Made by a program: the position numbers. From Thalia democratica (lineage: Eukaryota), in contig OZ241829.1 in assembly GCA_965202585.1 (NCBI GenBank), forward strand, positions 33,480,001 through 33,544,000: a DNA stretch of 64,000 nucleotides. The letters run 5' to 3'. Of this stretch, positions 9,001 to 54,000 are shown in pieces. Within the stretch, counting starts at the first letter, position 1, and every line of letters starts with the position of its first letter.

Positions 9001-12000
9001 TTTGATAAGTTCAAAGTAGAATCCAAATTCTTAAACATACATTTTAAAACTTAAATTATTTTTTAAAATCATATAACATGAATAAAAGGTTAAACTATTT
9101 GCTAAAATTATTGATAAATTTTTAATTCAAAATATTTCAGATTAAAACTTTACCTTTTAACGTAGAGTTCAATATATATTTTATAAGTGTTTAATATTAG
9201 ATACTATTATACAGTTTTTTTTTTTTGAATATTTTTGTTTATGAAAAATTATATTTTGTGTAGTCTAACAGTCTCATTTTTCATAGAGTTTTTAATTTTA
9301 CAGTTTAGTTTTAGCTGTTAAGTTTTTTTTATTGTTTTAGCTCAGTATAATTTTGACTAAAGTAAGGTATGTCCTGGACATGACATTAAACTGTATTCTG
9401 GTGTATGACTCGATAACCGAAAAGTTTTTTTGTAAACCAGGTCCTTGGACCAAATTTTTGAGCGGTTTTTGTTTTTTTCGTCTGTTCAACAAACTATTAG
9501 TTACCTTTAAAAACAAGTTATGCGTTTTTAAACAACTACGATATGGTGGTTTTATAACAAAGTTTTCAGATTTTATTCAAAATAAAATATTTATTAATGG
9601 TTAGCTATAGAGTTAAAAAATGATTTTAAGATTGTTTAGAATATAACTATTTAAAAAATATTTATTAAATATATGTATATTATCCGTGGTGTATGACGCA
9701 ATAATTGAAAGGCTCCTTTGTACATCAGGTTCTTAGACCAAACATTTTAAGAGCTTTTCTTTATCGTTCAATAAACAATACATTACTATTATTTCTAGTA
9801 TAACTTTTTTTAACTTGGTTGACTGCTGTAGATATATAAAAAAAATCATTTAAAAAACTACAATTTTGAGAATTTTCTTATATACGCACAAACAAAAAGT
9901 CCAAAAAATAAAAACTTTTAAATATGTCAAATTTGTAGTAAATTAAATAGTTTTAGGCAGTCTTACTTTGCTAATTGATTTATTACAGTCTAATATTCGT
10001 TAATGAATATTTAAAAAAAATTTTTAAACTAAACTCAGTTAGATTAAAAAAATAAGTAATGTTGAAAACAACACCACTTCATGTTTTATAGCAAAACCTT
10101 ACCTGAAAAATAAAAACAAAAAATTTTGGTGTTATAACTTGAAAAAATTGATTTAATGTTTAAAAAGGTAATTTTGTCACAGTCGATTTTTCATGTAAAT
10201 ATTGGGACACAATTCCGACCCGCGCACAATTCCGATCCAAGTTGTTCTAAATGTAATAAGAGGAAAATAAATAAATAAAAAGAAAGAAAATTAAACAACC
10301 GATCAAGGGTAAGGGGTAAAAGTAATAGGGAAAAAAACAAAGAAACAAAATCGGGTGGGAACTGATTCGGGTTGGAATTGTGCGCGGCTGGGAATTTTGA
10401 TTATTACGTAAATATTAAATACAAATAACAAATATTAGCATTTAAATAATCAAATACATCGAATAGCTCAGTTTAGGAGTCAAAAACGTTTGCTTAAATC
10501 GGTTCAAAAAACAAAAAGAAAGTCAACCCCCTAAACAAAATAACCACGAGCCTTAAAAAAAAAAGCCACTAAATCAAACTGCAGCTAAACCCGCCAACAA
10601 ACCACCGACCAATCGCGAGCCTCTAAACGCAACCCGACAGCCAATCGCAGCTCAGGAAAGTTCGAATCCCGTGTTGTTCGCAATCGCCTGCTTCAGCTTC
10701 TCCCTCAACATTTCCTTGGACGGGTAGTTTGGCAACTTCAGCAGGTTAAAGCATGTGGAGGCGGTGGGGAGCCGGTACTTCCCCGAACTGGTCGCCCCCT
10801 TGGACTTTTTCGACGATGACGTTATGCTGGGCATGGTGAAGAAGCCCCGGATCACCGTGGCAACCGTGTCGCCGGTGTCTTCGTCGTCAGGTACGTCTAC
10901 GCATCTGTTGGTGAAAAAGTTTAGGATTATAAAATTTTGACGGATTAAAAATAATCAATTACGTTTTTGATAAAAAAACAGCACTCTTTATATAAAACAA
11001 ATGTTTTTTAGGCTCGATTAATTAAAAAAAAACTATTAAACACTAGCTTATATTGATGAAACATAATAACAGCATATTGAAGTTTTTCGAACCGTCAAAA
11101 ACAAAACAACAATTTTAATGATGTTAACAACCTGATAGAAAAATGGGGATGGAGGTGCGCGAACCCGAGGAGGGGAGGCTTGGAGCAGGAGGTGACGAAT
11201 TTGAGGAAGTTGGAGGACTGCTTCGGAGTGAACTCCTTCTCGACCACCTCCCACAACCACCTGACCACCCGGTGCGATCCGTGGAACCCGCCGTAGTATA
11301 CCACGTGACTCCTTGAGATTACACGGTCGGTTGGTTGTTATTTTAATTAAATTTTTGCTTATTAAAAAAAACTGTTAGTTTGATATGGTAAATGTGAAAA
11401 GACTAATTCAAAATAAGTTGAACAATCTTTTCTGTAATTGAGGAAAACACGAACAAGTAAACATGCTTGGTTAACTTCCTCTTGTGTGAAACATGCTTTG
11501 AGAAAAAAAAAAGTTGTTTAAAACTAACTGTTATAAAATAATTTTTCAAAAAAAATTATTGCTACATGAAACAAATTCATTAACTCGCATTTTAAGAAAA
11601 CAACAAAACCATAAATTTTGTCAAACTTGAGGTCTTGGAAGTCGATGCCGACGTTGTCGCCCGAGATGAGGCGCTGAAACTCGGGGGCGGAGAACATTGC
11701 GGTCCACTTGAAGGGTATGATGGACCTGAAGCCGCGCAGGAACGCCCTCGTCTGCCGCTTGATCTGCGTGTGGAGGCGGAAGTGCGCCAGCGTGTGGATG
11801 TACATGAACCTTTATAATTTCAATTTGTAACAGAAGAGAAAGAGTTTAAAGTTTGTATGTTTGGTTGCTCAAACAATGTTCAAAACACTTTGTTGAGCAT
11901 TAAAGTCTGAACAACATAAGTTTATAATTTAAAGTGCACAGTTTTTGCACAAGTTCTCCTATAAAAACTGAACACTCCCTTCTACCTGTTGTCGTTGGTA

Positions 12001-51000: not shown

Positions 51001-54000
51001 TAGTTTATTGATTGCTATTTTGTAGTTTACTTCTATTATTTGTGCTTGATTGATTAGTTTTTAAAATAAAATTTTATTTTCATAAAAGAATTACTTTAGT
51101 TTAATTAAAGCAATACTTAGTAAATTTAATTTTTCAAAAAGGTTTTATTTGTAACTAAATGGTAATTTAACACATTTTAAGTCTTCCAATACATTTTATT
51201 AATTATTAGAGCTATCCAGACCTTTTTAAAAGCACACTAAACCATTATGTTTAAAACAAAAAATTAAACAGTACACAATATTTTACTTTCTAATTTAACC
51301 CTAAAACGGTCAAACTACTTAAAAAAGTGTGTATTATTTTCAAACCAGCAAAATAACAAAATACATTAACAGTGTATTTAAAAGTATAAGAAGAACAAAA
51401 TTAAATAACTAACTATTTTTGAGACCATAAAAAGTATATTAGTAAAAAGTAAAATAAAATTCAATAAACGAAATAAAGTAGCATCAACAAAAAAAATCAA
51501 TTGAACTTAAAAAATCATATTCTTAACTCTAAAATTCAACTACTACCTGCTGTATTGCTTTATGCAAAAAATAGAAAAGTTCTCGGCCAATAGTGAGGCA
51601 AATACAGTCTTCTTCTCCGTTCCCATTGTCAATTTTGACAAATGAGGTCTTTACTGGAGTGGAATTTGAAGCTGTGACCTTTAAAAACATGTTAACAGTG
51701 ATATTTTTTAACGGTCATTGTAGTATATCAAAGACAATATAGCATACTTTTAGAGCAAGTTTATAAAGGACAACTTTCCTATAGATTTAGTGAAAGCAGT
51801 GATAATAATAATTTACTAAATATTGATATAATTTTTATACGTTTATCTAATCTTAATTTCTGAGAAGACCTTATGCAAACAGGTTTTAAGTTTTAAAATT
51901 CAGGGATGTAAAGTATTTATTAAACGTTGGTATTTGTAAAATTCTGCTTAGTGGCAAATATGTAAATGAATTTTAGAAACCCAGATTCCAAATTCAACAC
52001 TCTATGAATATGTGTGGACAGGTATAAAATATTAAAAATTACTGAAAATATACCTAATTTTAATTTTTGGCCATATTTACTTAAGTTATAAGTTTATAAA
52101 AAAGAGTAATGATGTATTTGCTAAAATCATTTCATATAAATTATTATTGGAAAAAATATTATAAAAATTTTTGGAAAAAAATTCTTTCTTGAAAACTTTA
52201 TTTTTAAACTTTTCAACTAACTGGTAAATGTTAGAATGTTCTTAAATAATTTTAAAATATAGCACATTTCATAACTAAAATTTTTTAATCTATTTATTTT
52301 ATTACAACAAAATTCAATACAGAATTTTCACTAAAACTTAAGAAAAAAAATACAATATTGGAAAACAAAACTCTTTTTTTTTCACAATAAGGCACTTTTG
52401 TCCAAACTTTTTCTTTTAAGTTGTTATAGTCATTTTTACTTGATAGTTTTTACAATTTATTTAACATAGCATAGATAAATAATGTTTTTATAACAACTTA
52501 TTTCTGTTACTTACTAAAACTATACTTCAAACTTTAAAACATTTTTTTTGCTATTGTTTTTAGTAAAATAAACTTTTAATAAAATAAAAAAACAATGACA
52601 ATAATTTATTTAAATTCATCAAGACTTTTAATAAAATTGTTTATACATTTTAAAATGATGAATTGAATAAAATTACATTGTAATAAAGTATATTTTTTAA
52701 TAACTTTTACAAAGTAGTAAAACTTAAATCATCTCTAATTTTCTTTGGTTTATTTATGTAACATAACTTCAGTGATTTTTTAACTATAACTTTGATATGT
52801 AAACTCTACAAAATAACCTTAAAAAACTTGGAAATATGGAAAAATTAAAAACACACTTGAAACTATTTAGCTTATAAATCAAAATCTCAAGTTTTTTTCA
52901 TACTTTATAAAAACTAATAGTCAAGTTTATTATATAAATGACAACAGATGGTCAAATATTAAACTTATTTTTGTGATAAAACATTTGCAATTTATTAAAA
53001 ACTAAAAATTTTCAGACAAAAACAAAAAACTTACTGTCTGCTGTGAACTTGAGTACTGTGGAGTTTTTCCATAAAAGCTTTCAGCGAGATGCATTATTTT
53101 GTACTTTCCTTCTCTAGTAGTGAAATGTGACTTCACCTGGTTATTTTTTCCAGCATTGTCTTGTGCCATAGTATGAACAATTTCCAACCTCAAGCATGAA
53201 CCTCAAGAACATAACTAAAACACCTCAAAATAATTATGTTTTAATCTGAAAATTCAAATTTTTTTGAATGTGCACTAAAATTAACTTTTTTGGATTAGGT
53301 TACAGTATATTTGATGATTGGAGATAGGTATAAACAATATACATAACAGCATTTTTTATTACACTAACTCAAACTAATTTTTCTAACACACTATAACTGT
53401 GTTGTATATGTTTGAAAACTTCATTAAGTTCTTTGCTAAATAAACTTTTGCTTTGATAATTGTCAGCAACACAATAGTTGATTTGTATTCAAATAGTTAC
53501 ATATTTATTTTTTTAACTAATTTTATTCACAAACAAAAACCGTTTTATACAGTAATACTTTTATAGTAACAGAACTCAACAGTTTAAAATAAAAAAAAAC
53601 TACATTTTATTTATAATCTGTTTTATTTAAAAGTTTTTATTTTATAACATTAGTAATCTTAAAATGTTTCTTGTTTCATGAACTTAATTATCTATATTAA
53701 TTAAAATGAAATTAATTCTAAAACGCTTGATAGAAAAAATAATAAACACAAAAGTAGAGAATAAGTTTTTGATAAATATTGTAAAAGAAGAATTTATGTT
53801 ATTACTTAGCAATCAACTTACAATAATAATTTACAATAATAAACGATGAAGAAATTTAAAATTTAGAATGAACATGAAAAAAAAAACTAAATGTATACAC
53901 TGCAGACAAGAAAAATATTTTTTTATTGGTAACCAGAAAGACAACATTCTAGTGCATAAAGACCAGTCAAAATCAAAAAGTTTTGTCTACAACCAAATTT

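Follow-up and report, generated by a model that had tools for sequence, protein, structure and literature searches.

Stepwise Third-Position GC Content, Low in 5' Exons and High in Downstream Exons, in Two Genes of Thalia democratica

Introduction

The closest described systems for a change of base composition from exon to exon are plant genes. In Arabidopsis and rice, guanine plus cytosine (GC) content changes in intron-delimited steps, with GC-rich external (5') parts and GC-poor internal parts in a U-shaped profile (Ressayre et al. 2015, PMC4684703). A barrier that introns pose to conversion tracts has been invoked for these steps, together with stabilising selection, related to splicing and nucleosomes, on the GC content of exons and introns (PMC4684703). 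The present study concerns a window of 64,000 nucleotides (64 kb) from Thalia democratica (assembly GCA_965202585.1, contig OZ241829.1, positions 33,480,001 to 33,544,000 of the forward strand), in which two genes on the minus strand, UBE3B and WDR20, display steps in the GC content of the third positions of codons (GC3), low in the 5' exons and high in the downstream exons.

Several other systems are relevant. The exon-intron GC contrast has been proposed to mark exons via nucleosomes, with the contrast-less class of exons marked more by DNA methylation (Gelfman et al. 2013, PMC3638135). In the honeybee, sequence with inferred methylation is poor in CpG and is linked to less recombination and lower GC (Wallberg et al. 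2015, PMC4406589). In several taxa, GC3 is negatively related to gene-body methylation when genes are compared (PMC3762193). Regarding gradients along genes, GC3-rich genes of grasses display a 5' GC3 gradient that is only slightly positive (PMC2895627), and human first exons are the GC-richest (PMC7181179). The genome of Thalia democratica has a GC content of 25.3%; the coding sequence (CDS) exceeds this by almost 17 points, and GC3 is broadly distributed (PMC13746493). Whether selection, GC-biased gene conversion (gBGC) or mutation governs silent sites in animals is a question that has long been open, the forces usually acting on exons and their surroundings together.

Results and Discussion

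GC3 Differs from Exon to Exon at Silent Sites

The window contains no N and has 26.8% GC overall and 24.4% outside exons. The results below refer to two genes in this one window, the models of which were derived from genomic sequence and protein homology. Models were assembled exon by exon through single-exon protein searches, tblastn, an orthologue profile, GT/AG phase arithmetic and direct reading of the sequence. For UBE3B, 22 coding exons extend from 28336 to 10652, with a CDS model of 3549 nucleotides (nt) followed by TGA. For WDR20, seven coding exons extend from 53169 to 41955, to which a newly found, putative terminal exon is added. When the largest WD-repeat open reading frame (ORF) was used in a single-exon protein search, WDR20 proteins were returned, including three transcript-like proteins at 95%, 89%, and 59%; the closest named matches were from tunicates (Ciona, Clavelina, Phallusia, Styela; 36-51% identity). 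Anchor arithmetic on P0001, the protein with 95% identity, placed the WDR20 junctions exactly. All six homology-fixed introns of WDR20 are phase 0, as would be the putative seventh, and the introns of UBE3B occur in all three phases. A search of the protein database with a HECT exon of UBE3B gave nothing above 75% identity, and for this reason the UBE3B junctions rest on distant named orthologues (Ciona P0127 and Clavelina P0129), a profile built from 16 named orthologues, and the phase-consistent choice of GT/AG; the placement of the donor carries an uncertainty of up to approximately 11 codons in each of exons 2, 3, and 10. Both CDS models have zero in-frame stops, AG/GT at all junctions and consistent phases.

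Exon 7 of WDR20 closes on a GT donor with no stop, and the proteins of close relatives end two residues later. A motif consisting of an acceptor, Gly, Glu and a stop, taken from the C-terminus of P0001 and P0002, has its sole match in the window at 37560-37550, on the correct strand and adjoining the edge of a GC-raised block; at least one chance match occurred in 20 of 100 shuffles. The terminal exon suggested by this match, at 37558, would consist nearly entirely of 3' untranslated region (UTR). The exons of both genes are listed below with their GC3 counts and, in brackets, the evidence for each; o/e denotes the observed/expected ratio of CpG.

28200-28336, minus strand: UBE3B exon 1, ATG at 28336, IQ motif; GC3 9/45 = 0.20 (profile E = 6e-8, sequence read)
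27869-27960, minus strand: UBE3B exon 2; GC3 5/31 = 0.16; donor 27869, 27875 or 27890, all phase 1 (weak profile match E = 6.6; frame and phase fit to exons 1 and 3)
25633-26004, minus strand: UBE3B exon 3, 372 nt, long yet AT-rich, weak donor; GC3 36/124 = 0.29 (tblastn with Clavelina E = 8e-10; profile E = 8e-7)
25250-25389, minus strand: UBE3B exon 4; GC3 14/47 = 0.30 (profile, junction arithmetic)
25001-25087, minus strand: UBE3B exon 5; GC3 8/29 = 0.28 (profile, junction arithmetic)
24440-24600, minus strand: UBE3B exon 6, closing the AT-rich, CpG-poor 5' zone; GC3 17/53 = 0.32 (tblastn, profile, junction arithmetic)
22348-22453, minus strand: UBE3B exon 7, 106 nt, where the transition begins; GC3 19/36 = 0.53 (tblastn, profile, junction arithmetic)
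19859-20056, minus strand: UBE3B exon 8; GC3 38/66 = 0.58 (profile, junction arithmetic)
19463-19575, minus strand: UBE3B exon 9, 113 nt; GC3 15/37 = 0.41 (profile, junction arithmetic)
18507-18682, minus strand: UBE3B exon 10, donor uncertain; GC3 37/59 = 0.63 (tblastn, profile, junction arithmetic)
17887-18078, minus strand: UBE3B exon 11; GC3 48/64 = 0.75 (tblastn, profile, junction arithmetic)
17183-17354, minus strand: UBE3B exon 12; GC3 45/57 = 0.79 (tblastn, profile, junction arithmetic)
16773-16897, minus strand: UBE3B exon 13, 125 nt, low within the GC-rich zone; GC3 18/42 = 0.43; CpG o/e 0.24; 77-80% identity to Ciona and Clavelina (tblastn, junction arithmetic)
14513-14624, minus strand: UBE3B exon 14, 112 nt; GC3 20/37 = 0.54; CpG o/e 0.34 (tblastn, junction arithmetic)
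14065-14213, minus strand: UBE3B exon 15; GC3 35/50 = 0.70 (tblastn, junction arithmetic)
13790-13893, minus strand: UBE3B exon 16, 104 nt; GC3 18/35 = 0.51; CpG o/e 0.40 (tblastn, junction arithmetic)
13518-13649, minus strand: UBE3B exon 17, 132 nt, flanking introns 140 and 292 nt; GC3 36/44 = 0.82 (tblastn, junction arithmetic)
13047-13225, minus strand: UBE3B exon 18; GC3 44/59 = 0.75 (tblastn, junction arithmetic)
11986-12174, minus strand: UBE3B exon 19; GC3 47/63 = 0.75 (tblastn, junction arithmetic)
11627-11809, minus strand: UBE3B exon 20 (HECT); GC3 57/61 = 0.93 (tblastn, junction arithmetic)
11132-11311, minus strand: UBE3B exon 21 (HECT); GC3 50/60 = 0.83 (Pfam HECT E = 1e-16, tblastn, junction arithmetic)
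10652-10904, minus strand: coding part of the UBE3B terminal exon, TGA at 10654-10652; GC3 66/84 = 0.79 (Pfam HECT E = 3e-16, tblastn)
10140-10651, minus strand: putative UBE3B 3'UTR, AATAAA at 10157; GC 0.35, CpG o/e 1.39 (3' end predicted from the signal alone)
53035-53169, minus strand: WDR20 exon 1, ATG at 53169; GC3 16/45 = 0.36; CpG o/e 0.20 (97.9% identity to P0001; exact junction arithmetic)
51547-51678, minus strand: WDR20 exon 2, 132 nt; GC3 16/44 = 0.36 (100% identity to P0001)
50000-50182, minus strand: WDR20 exon 3, abrupt switch 3.0 kb from the ATG; GC3 55/61 = 0.90 (tblastn, junction arithmetic)
46562-46708, minus strand: WDR20 exon 4; GC3 39/49 = 0.80 (tblastn, junction arithmetic)
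46036-46278, minus strand: WDR20 exon 5; GC3 63/81 = 0.78 (tblastn, junction arithmetic)
44498-45442, minus strand: WDR20 exon 6, 945 nt; GC3 250/315 = 0.79, with 0.70-0.90 per 20 codons and 0.47 in the last 15 codons (single-exon search, tblastn)
41955-42131, minus strand: WDR20 exon 7, GT donor at its end and no stop; GC3 55/59 = 0.93 (tblastn)
37100-37558, minus strand: putative WDR20 terminal exon, two codons and TGA (37558-37550), then 3'UTR; GC 0.38, CpG o/e 1.39 (motif match; 3' end provisional)

Among the exons of UBE3B, GC3 ranges from 0.16 to 0.93, and among those of WDR20 from 0.36 to 0.93. Both genes are very strongly heterogeneous (UBE3B: chi2 = 249, 21 degrees of freedom (df), p = 6e-41; WDR20: chi2 = 95.7, df 6, p = 2e-18). 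The counts reported in a first-pass annotation of this DNA were reproduced identically for UBE3B exons 1 (9/45) and 17 (36/44) and for the first three exons of WDR20 (16/45, 16/44, 55/61); for UBE3B exon 13, the earlier 18/41 becomes 18/42 when the third base of a split codon is counted. The same annotation placed the heterogeneity at synonymous sites and bound it to exons, which is borne out: four-fold degenerate sites alone are heterogeneous (p = 3e-15 in UBE3B, 1e-11 in WDR20), whereas per-exon GC at first and second codon positions (GC1 and GC2) is homogeneous (p = 0.29 and 0.20 in UBE3B; 0.52 and 0.31 in WDR20). In the window as a whole, 95 segments of 100 nt have GC of at least 0.42, and 80 of these overlap exons or UTRs, which themselves make up approximately 10% of the window. 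As a control, a retrotransposon reverse-transcriptase fragment located between the two genes (Pfam RVT_1, E = 7e-10; 30984-31445 and 31558-31812, plus strand) has GC3 of only 0.29-0.32, showing that the status of an ORF does not of itself bring GC richness here.

An artefact, in which mis-assembly, contamination or wrong exon models had mixed unrelated sequence, is highly improbable. Both genes have exons collinear with those of orthologues, the AG/GT junctions and phases are consistent with no in-frame stop, and independent counts agree, in a window that contains no N. The chimeric assembly that the first-pass annotation named as a circumstance undermining its reading is likewise unlikely, since the AT-rich exons 1-2 of WDR20 are 98-100% identical to the protein of a close relative, and one dispersed repeat family is found in introns of both compositional zones and in intergenic DNA. 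Protein conservation also fails as a determinant of GC3: AT-rich or intermediate composition is seen in exons 1-2 of WDR20 (98-100% to P0001) and exon 13 of UBE3B (77-80% to Ciona and Clavelina).

GC3 Moves in Steps at Introns

The pattern is best described in zones. The cut-offs for GC3 (0.45 and 0.70) and exon length (130 nt), and the starts of the downstream zones (UBE3B exon 7 and WDR20 exon 3), were set post hoc, after the data had been seen. The 5' zone comprises exons 1-6 of UBE3B (989 nt of CDS, 330 codons, 5.9 kb of genome) and exons 1-2 of WDR20 (267 nt, 89 codons, 3.0 kb). Here, GC3 is 0.16-0.36, near the GC content of introns, and CpG is depleted. In the downstream zone, GC3 depends on exon length: five exons of at most 125 nt have GC3 of 0.41-0.54, and sixteen of at least 132 nt have 0.58-0.93 (Mann-Whitney p = 1e-4; the best threshold statistic was reached by none of 2000 label permutations). 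It should be noted that two of the five short exons sit in the UBE3B transition zone, where long exons are intermediate as well. An edge effect is rejected as the source of low GC3 in short exons, since their centres (30-60 nt from an exon end) are also low, at 0.48-0.51, compared with 0.79 for longer exons. With exons sorted into three classes (5' zone, short downstream, long downstream), the deviance drops from 412 to 62 (26 df), with some heterogeneity left. The term "mosaic", which had been applied to this locus, is therefore apt as regards heterogeneity and too loose as regards arrangement, GC3 being ordered by exon rank and by these three classes.

In UBE3B, GC3 increases with exon rank (Spearman 0.85, p = 5e-7), and over the 29 exons of both genes it increases with distance from the ATG along the genome (rho 0.63, p = 3e-4). 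The latter correlation agrees with a process tied to promoter distance, one of the causes first proposed. However, smooth models of genomic distance misfit (p = 5e-5 and 4e-7), the switch lies approximately 3.0 kb from the ATG in WDR20 and at 5.9-10 kb in UBE3B, and only two genes are available. Smooth logistic models of codon position misfit too (p = 4e-6 in UBE3B and 1e-11 in WDR20). The slope of GC3 within exons is nil in UBE3B (p = 0.9) and negative in WDR20 (p = 0.026), and the slope between exons is 0.26-0.27 logit per 100 codons. GC3 thus moves stepwise at introns, not continuously along the CDS. As the change occurs only at intron boundaries, the cause acts on exons as units and not on the whole gene or region.

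Selection on the mature mRNA or its translation bears directly on this behavior. It would favor G/C-ending codons for elongation, accuracy, mRNA stability or export, with the 5' part relaxed by a ramp or by drop-off. Selection against nonsense (drop-off) errors predicts a codon bias rising from 5' to 3', which is the polarity observed here, and a logistic model of codon position takes up much of the trend in UBE3B (-2lnL, twice the negative log-likelihood, falls from 1612 to 1408). The view that translational selection acts on a whole mRNA, and cannot easily give such a range within one gene, was accordingly too strong. Nevertheless, the nonsense-error model fails here through the misfits and slopes given above. 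The ribosome cannot see introns, yet the steps lie there; the conserved short exons 13, 14, and 16 fall to 0.43-0.54 amid the GC-rich part; and relaxed zones of 89 and 330 codons extend far beyond the length commonly given for a ramp. Silent coding sites (0.80) are affected far more strongly than the 3'UTRs (0.35-0.38), a point in favor of selection at this level. Overall, selection on the mature mRNA is considered unlikely.

Codon Usage, CpG and Amino Acid Composition

Third positions in GC3-rich exons are C in 0.43 and G in 0.37, and CpG is not avoided. C- and G-ending codons are near equal in every four-fold family, codons of the form NCG included (NCG being close to NCC): for Ala, GCC 0.41 and GCG 0.41; for Thr, ACC 0.41 and ACG 0.42; for Pro, CCC 0.35 and CCG 0.44; for Val, GTC 0.35 and GTG 0.39. 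The pressure is generic for G+C, not codon-specific. Equal C and G endings in all families are unlike the adaptation of one codon per family to tRNAs. This symmetry, along with a GC content of 0.5-0.6 that persists for approximately 80 nt beyond the UBE3B stop, upholds the judgement of the first-pass annotation that translational selection explains the pattern poorly.

The abundance of CpG reported earlier in GC-rich exons was recovered, with o/e of 1.06 in GC3-rich, 0.83 in intermediate and 0.45 in GC3-poor exons. The GC3-poor exons contain 19 CpG in 1494 nt, and the third-position C fraction is 0.07 before G versus 0.19 otherwise. This depletion suggests germline methylation in the 5' zone. 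CpG decay was rejected as the sole source of the AT-rich exons, since third-position G+C outside CpG is still approximately 0.33 in poor and 0.81 in rich exons. Composition also shifts beyond silent sites when exons are pooled: GC1 is 0.506 versus 0.389 and GC2 is 0.422 versus 0.307 in GC3-rich and GC3-poor exons, respectively (p approximately 1e-5). Compared with orthologues, amino acids of GC3-poor exons are shifted to AT-coded residues in 22 of 28 comparisons and those of GC3-rich exons in 14 of 28; the comparisons are mutually non-independent and are treated as weak evidence.

The CpG decay of the 5' zone could also reflect a non-equilibrium relic, in which ancestrally GC-rich exons decay to AT at unequal rates with no maintenance now. 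The genome lies at an AT-rich extreme, that of Thalia democratica, at 25.3%, being the lowest GC of 38 tunicates (PMC13746493). However, silent sites share their mutation process with the adjacent introns, and a lag of 0.55 in GC would be impossible in the absence of a force; moreover, the closest named tunicate relatives are not near a GC3 of 0.8, with species means of 29.9-50.2% (PMC13746493). A relic is therefore very unlikely.

Exon Borders, Introns and 3'UTRs

The fall of GC near splice sites that was noted earlier holds at a resolution of 10 nt: the exon level passes to the intron level within 10 nt of the junctions. On the acceptor side of the 14 exons with GC3 of at least 0.70, the last 60 intron bases have GC of 0.21-0.35 and the first 60 exon bases 0.51-0.61; on the donor side, exon GC is 0.48-0.59 and intron GC 0.22-0.33. 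At third positions, the plateau begins no further than 18 nt from either exon end. Contrast is small in the 10 GC3-poor exons (exon GC 0.25-0.39 versus 0.10-0.30 in the flanks). No decay of GC into the intron flanks was seen at 10-60 nt from GC-rich exons, where GC stays at 0.21-0.31. Between the 5' and downstream zones, intron GC rises from 0.209 to 0.253 while GC3 rises from 0.31 to 0.80, so that the intron shift is approximately one tenth of the silent-site shift; in UBE3B, GC3 correlates with flank GC (Spearman 0.70), yet the slope is again approximately one tenth. Relative to local introns, the shift in log-odds is approximately 2.5 for GC3-rich exons and 0.5 for GC3-poor exons and 3'UTRs. 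Beyond the UBE3B stop, GC remains at 0.50-0.60 over those first 80 nt and then falls to approximately 0.33 and lower. In the putative terminal exon of WDR20, GC is 0.40-0.44 over the first 200 nt, with flanks of approximately 0.21. In these two UTRs, one of them putative, enrichment is much weaker than in the coding sequence, yet the stop codon does not appear to be its border.

A natural comparison of exonic and intronic states of one sequence is provided by a copy of the acceptor region of WDR20 exon 3, as follows.

50377-50432, minus strand: copy of the WDR20 exon 3 acceptor region with the first ~40 exon nt, in intron 2, ~230 nt upstream (self-blastn E = 7e-9, adjacent collinear match)

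The exon-derived part of the copy contains 10 differences. At eight of these, G/C in the exon is matched by A/T in the copy, two are exchanges between A and T, and none is in the reverse direction (binomial p = 0.008). As this alignment shows, one sequence reaches opposite compositions as exon and as intron, the direction of change being unpolarised without an outgroup. The copy belongs to a tandem duplication of approximately 220-270 nt in WDR20 intron 2 (50150-50366 and 50377-50631), which includes the exon 3 acceptor. In the upstream duplicate the AG acceptor still looks intact and could serve as a decoy 3' splice site.

The first-pass annotation had listed exon-targeted gBGC among the candidate causes. 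In its regional form, this is not supported, given the small intron response and the lack of a flank gradient. An exon-confined form stays as a rival, in which introns with allelic divergence (indels, repeats) bar conversion tracts and long downstream exons are enriched where recombination starts. The C/G symmetry, a CpG o/e of 1.06 and the involvement of GC1, GC2, and amino acids are marks of a base-composition drive; short exons and exon edges are less enriched, as if tracts must fit inside an exon; intron GC and CpG o/e rise slightly in the same zone; and heterogeneity at the kilobase scale resembles recombination hotspots. Precedents are available in the intron barrier to conversion tracts proposed for plants (PMC4684703) and in the very strong, CpG-favoring gBGC of the honeybee, in which methylated genes recombine less (PMC4406589). 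However, the flat flanks require a barrier exactly at the splice junction, and the intron response of approximately one tenth differs from the honeybee, in which coding, intronic, and intergenic GC all track recombination (PMC4406589). Furthermore, the 3'UTR contiguous with the last coding exon drops to approximately 0.33. Exon-confined gBGC is accordingly doubtful. A broader class, an exon-bounded drive at the DNA level with neutral fixation bias, produced either by conversion tracts stopped at divergent introns or by repair templated by spliced transcripts, is rather unlikely. Such a drive would be off in the promoter-proximal, probably methylated zone, with a polarity opposite to every gradient found described.

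A bias of mutation or repair tied to chromatin is quite unlikely. Nucleosomes on exons or gene-body marks, low near promoters, would recruit the repair of GC-to-AT lesions, and the decay to AT would be slower in downstream exons than in introns, in a lineage from which several base-excision repair genes are reported missing. Thaliaceans are reported to be without smug1, MUTYH, and MPG, which would make GC-to-AT damage the dominant input (PMC13746493). The exemption of promoter-proximal exons, the lower enrichment of short exons (below approximately one nucleosome), and the CpG depletion of the 5' zone (o/e of 0.45 in exons and 0.58 in introns), which fits a distinct chromatin or methylation state, all agree with such a bias. 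Nucleosome processes, however, should blur over tens of bases and leave linker dips, whereas the border here spans 10-18 nt and the 945-nt WDR20 exon is uniform, with no linker-like dips or periodicity visible in it. A shift of GC from 0.25 to 0.80 needs a change in mutation ratio of approximately ten-fold or larger in exons only, 3'UTRs should share the marks and yet lie at 0.35-0.38, and the link of exon-positioned nucleosomes or gene-body marks to repair is drawn from general background.

Two consequences follow from the form of the steps. The sharp border at the splice junction favors a process at the RNA level, which "knows" the junction, since a DNA-level process has no obvious way to do so. 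Quantisation by exon, together with a border coincident with the junction, argues against intron-blind processes (translation, including the nonsense-error model, and properties of the mature mRNA) as well as against DNA-level processes lacking access to the junction (regional gBGC, and repair guided by nucleosomes or marks). Both features are as expected if selection acted on the pre-mRNA or on the exon as a unit.

Splice Signals

In most eukaryotes the +3 position of the donor is almost always a purine. Among 28 donors of both genes, position +3 is T in 15, A in 7, G in 5 and C in 1, with GTTTGA and GTTTGT recurrent. Examples of these donor sites lie after 17887, 17183, 14065, 11627, 50000, 46562, and 44498, and three of them are placed exactly by the WDR20 relative with 95% identity. 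These donors suggest that recognition of the 5' splice site is altered in this lineage. Exon-definition or nucleosome selection compensating for weak splice sites, another of the causes first put forward, receives mixed support: GC3 showed no correlation with donor match, acceptor pyrimidine content or intron length, while the distribution of T at +3, a post hoc observation, the exemption of short exons and the sharp borders speak for it.

Selection on Exon Composition as a Tentative Explanation

Taken together, the results would be accounted for by a force that favors G/C on exons as units, opposed to a strongly AT-biased background. The explanation that we favor, tentatively and as a possibility, is that natural selection acts on the composition of exons, either in the pre-mRNA or in its chromatin template. 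GC-rich exon bodies would contrast with AT-rich introns, the "differential GC" form of exon marking, in a genome with weak splice signals. The founding paper on this exon-intron architecture is reportedly that of Amit et al. 2012. Earlier work offers precedents both for exon marking by GC contrast or, alternatively, by methylation (PMC3638135) and for splicing- and nucleosome-linked selection on the GC of exons and introns (PMC4684703). The population-scaled bias would be approximately 2.5 at silent sites of long downstream exons and approximately 0.5 in promoter-proximal exons and 3'UTRs. The force would be selection rather than a bias at the DNA level, and the selected trait would be splicing or exon marking. 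The 5' zone may be exempt through different marking or handling, for example germline methylation, as its CpG depletion suggests.

Confidence in selection on exon composition is modest because the exemption of the 5' zone was unpredicted, the low GC of UTRs is unexplained and intron length gives no support. Several observations weigh against it. Eight promoter-proximal exons, one of them 372 nt, are spliced without contrast, and their exemption is not predicted. A force on exons per se should raise the UTRs further; these are mildly enriched (GC 0.35 and 0.38), with an implied bias of approximately 0.5 versus 2.5, and part of the effect looks coding-specific. GC3 showed no relation to the 9-base donor match, acceptor pyrimidine content or flanking intron length (all |rho| < 0.2, from crude scores), and exon 17 of UBE3B, with a GC3 of 0.82, is flanked by introns of 140 and 292 nt, a setting in which exon definition should be unnecessary. 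T at +3 follows 10 of 13 GC3-rich exons versus 5 of 15 others, a post hoc association that is marginal (p = 0.03). The difference between zones in intron GC (p = 7e-12) and in intron CpG o/e (0.58 in the 5' zone versus 0.80 downstream, p = 0.05) is a small regional component that exon selection does not account for. Selection on approximately 60 silent sites per exon requires a very large effective population size, which is assumed here, and two genes only cannot show generality.

If the pattern holds genome-wide, it would provide a sharp internal control for measuring the force by polymorphism, exon against exon and exon against flank, and a test of the intron barrier and of GC-contrast exon marking outside plants and mammals. 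If an exon-bounded drive were true, gBGC and selection would be separable base by base at splice junctions, and a neutral fixation bias would imprint exon-intron structure on base composition. The 5'-low, 3'-high polarity is unpredicted by current explanations, with promoter-associated recombination and CpG islands predicting the reverse. In practical terms, GC3-rich islands mark most exons in such a genome, and gene finders based on composition will miss AT-rich 5' exons.

Other Features of the Window

No third gene for replication was obtained: none of 10 further ORFs in the window matched Pfam, and Rfam and ARAGORN returned no matches and no tRNAs, respectively; apart from the two genes, the reverse-transcriptase fragment is the sole coding-like sequence. 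Two short GC-raised patches at 5701-5850 and 8667-8855 (up to 0.52 GC), the translations of which are alike on opposite strands, are among the few GC-rich extragenic patches and are likely copies of a small repeat, not exons.

The dispersed repeat family mentioned above is AT-rich, approximately 280 nt long and 68-79% identical between copies. Copies at 12441-12726, 19021-19311, 22709-22989, 55758-56035, 45455-45607, 54908-55058, and elsewhere occupy introns of both genes and of both compositional zones as well as intergenic DNA, and the family is probably a non-autonomous transposable element. Two further repeat pairs, 32584-33003 with 41087-41472 (426 nt, 80% identity) and 39652-39758 with 41813-41920 (108 nt, 92% identity), each have one copy in the long last intron of WDR20, just downstream of exon 7. 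The same intron contains a CpG-rich island at 37800-38200 (GC 0.44, 32 CpG, o/e 1.64), which encloses a (TA)n run and is located just upstream of the putative terminal exon. The island lacks a long ORF; its longest ORF gave no match in Pfam, nor did the island in Rfam. Possible roles are those of a promoter, of a non-coding exon not yet annotated or of an alternative 3' exon.

Comparison with Known Systems

In the open-access full-text literature, neither a 5'-low, 3'-high pattern of exon steps in any organism nor a description of within-gene composition in thaliaceans was found. The published figures for the Thalia democratica genome agree with the window, in which GC is 26.8% overall and 24.4% outside exons and the closest named protein relatives are tunicates; that study gives species and gene averages, and the sections drawn on here contain no within-gene analysis (PMC13746493). 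The honeybee shares an AT-rich genome, an AT mutation bias opposed by a G/C fixation bias, and CpG favored in GC-rich sequence (PMC4406589). It differs in that coding, intronic, and intergenic GC there all follow recombination (PMC4406589), whereas introns here stay at 0.21-0.31. Gradients from nonsense errors and in grasses are likewise low at the 5' end, but they are continuous and small, and the pattern here is exon-quantised and very large. The negative relation between GC3 and methylation across genes (PMC3762193) is an analogue, between genes, of the pattern observed here within a gene.

Two systems come closest. With the differential GC architecture, the genes studied here share exons far GC-richer than AT-rich introns, and the CpG-depleted, low-contrast 5' exons parallel the methylation-marked class (PMC3638135). 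There, the two architectures separate genes or regions (PMC3638135), whereas here both occur in one gene, ordered from 5' to 3'. The contrast here, known from sequence alone, is extreme, lies nearly entirely at silent positions and showed no relation to intron length. With the step gradients of plants, the present genes share steps at introns, a weaker parallel gradient in introns and a joint shift of codon and amino acid composition (PMC4684703); no dependence on exon length is mentioned in the sections of that paper used here (PMC4684703). Compared with plants, the polarity is opposite, with a GC3 of 0.20 and 0.36 in the first exons and up to 0.93 in internal and last exons, and the amplitude in this tunicate-like animal is far larger, from 0.16 to 0.93 within one gene whose introns lie at approximately 0.2-0.3.

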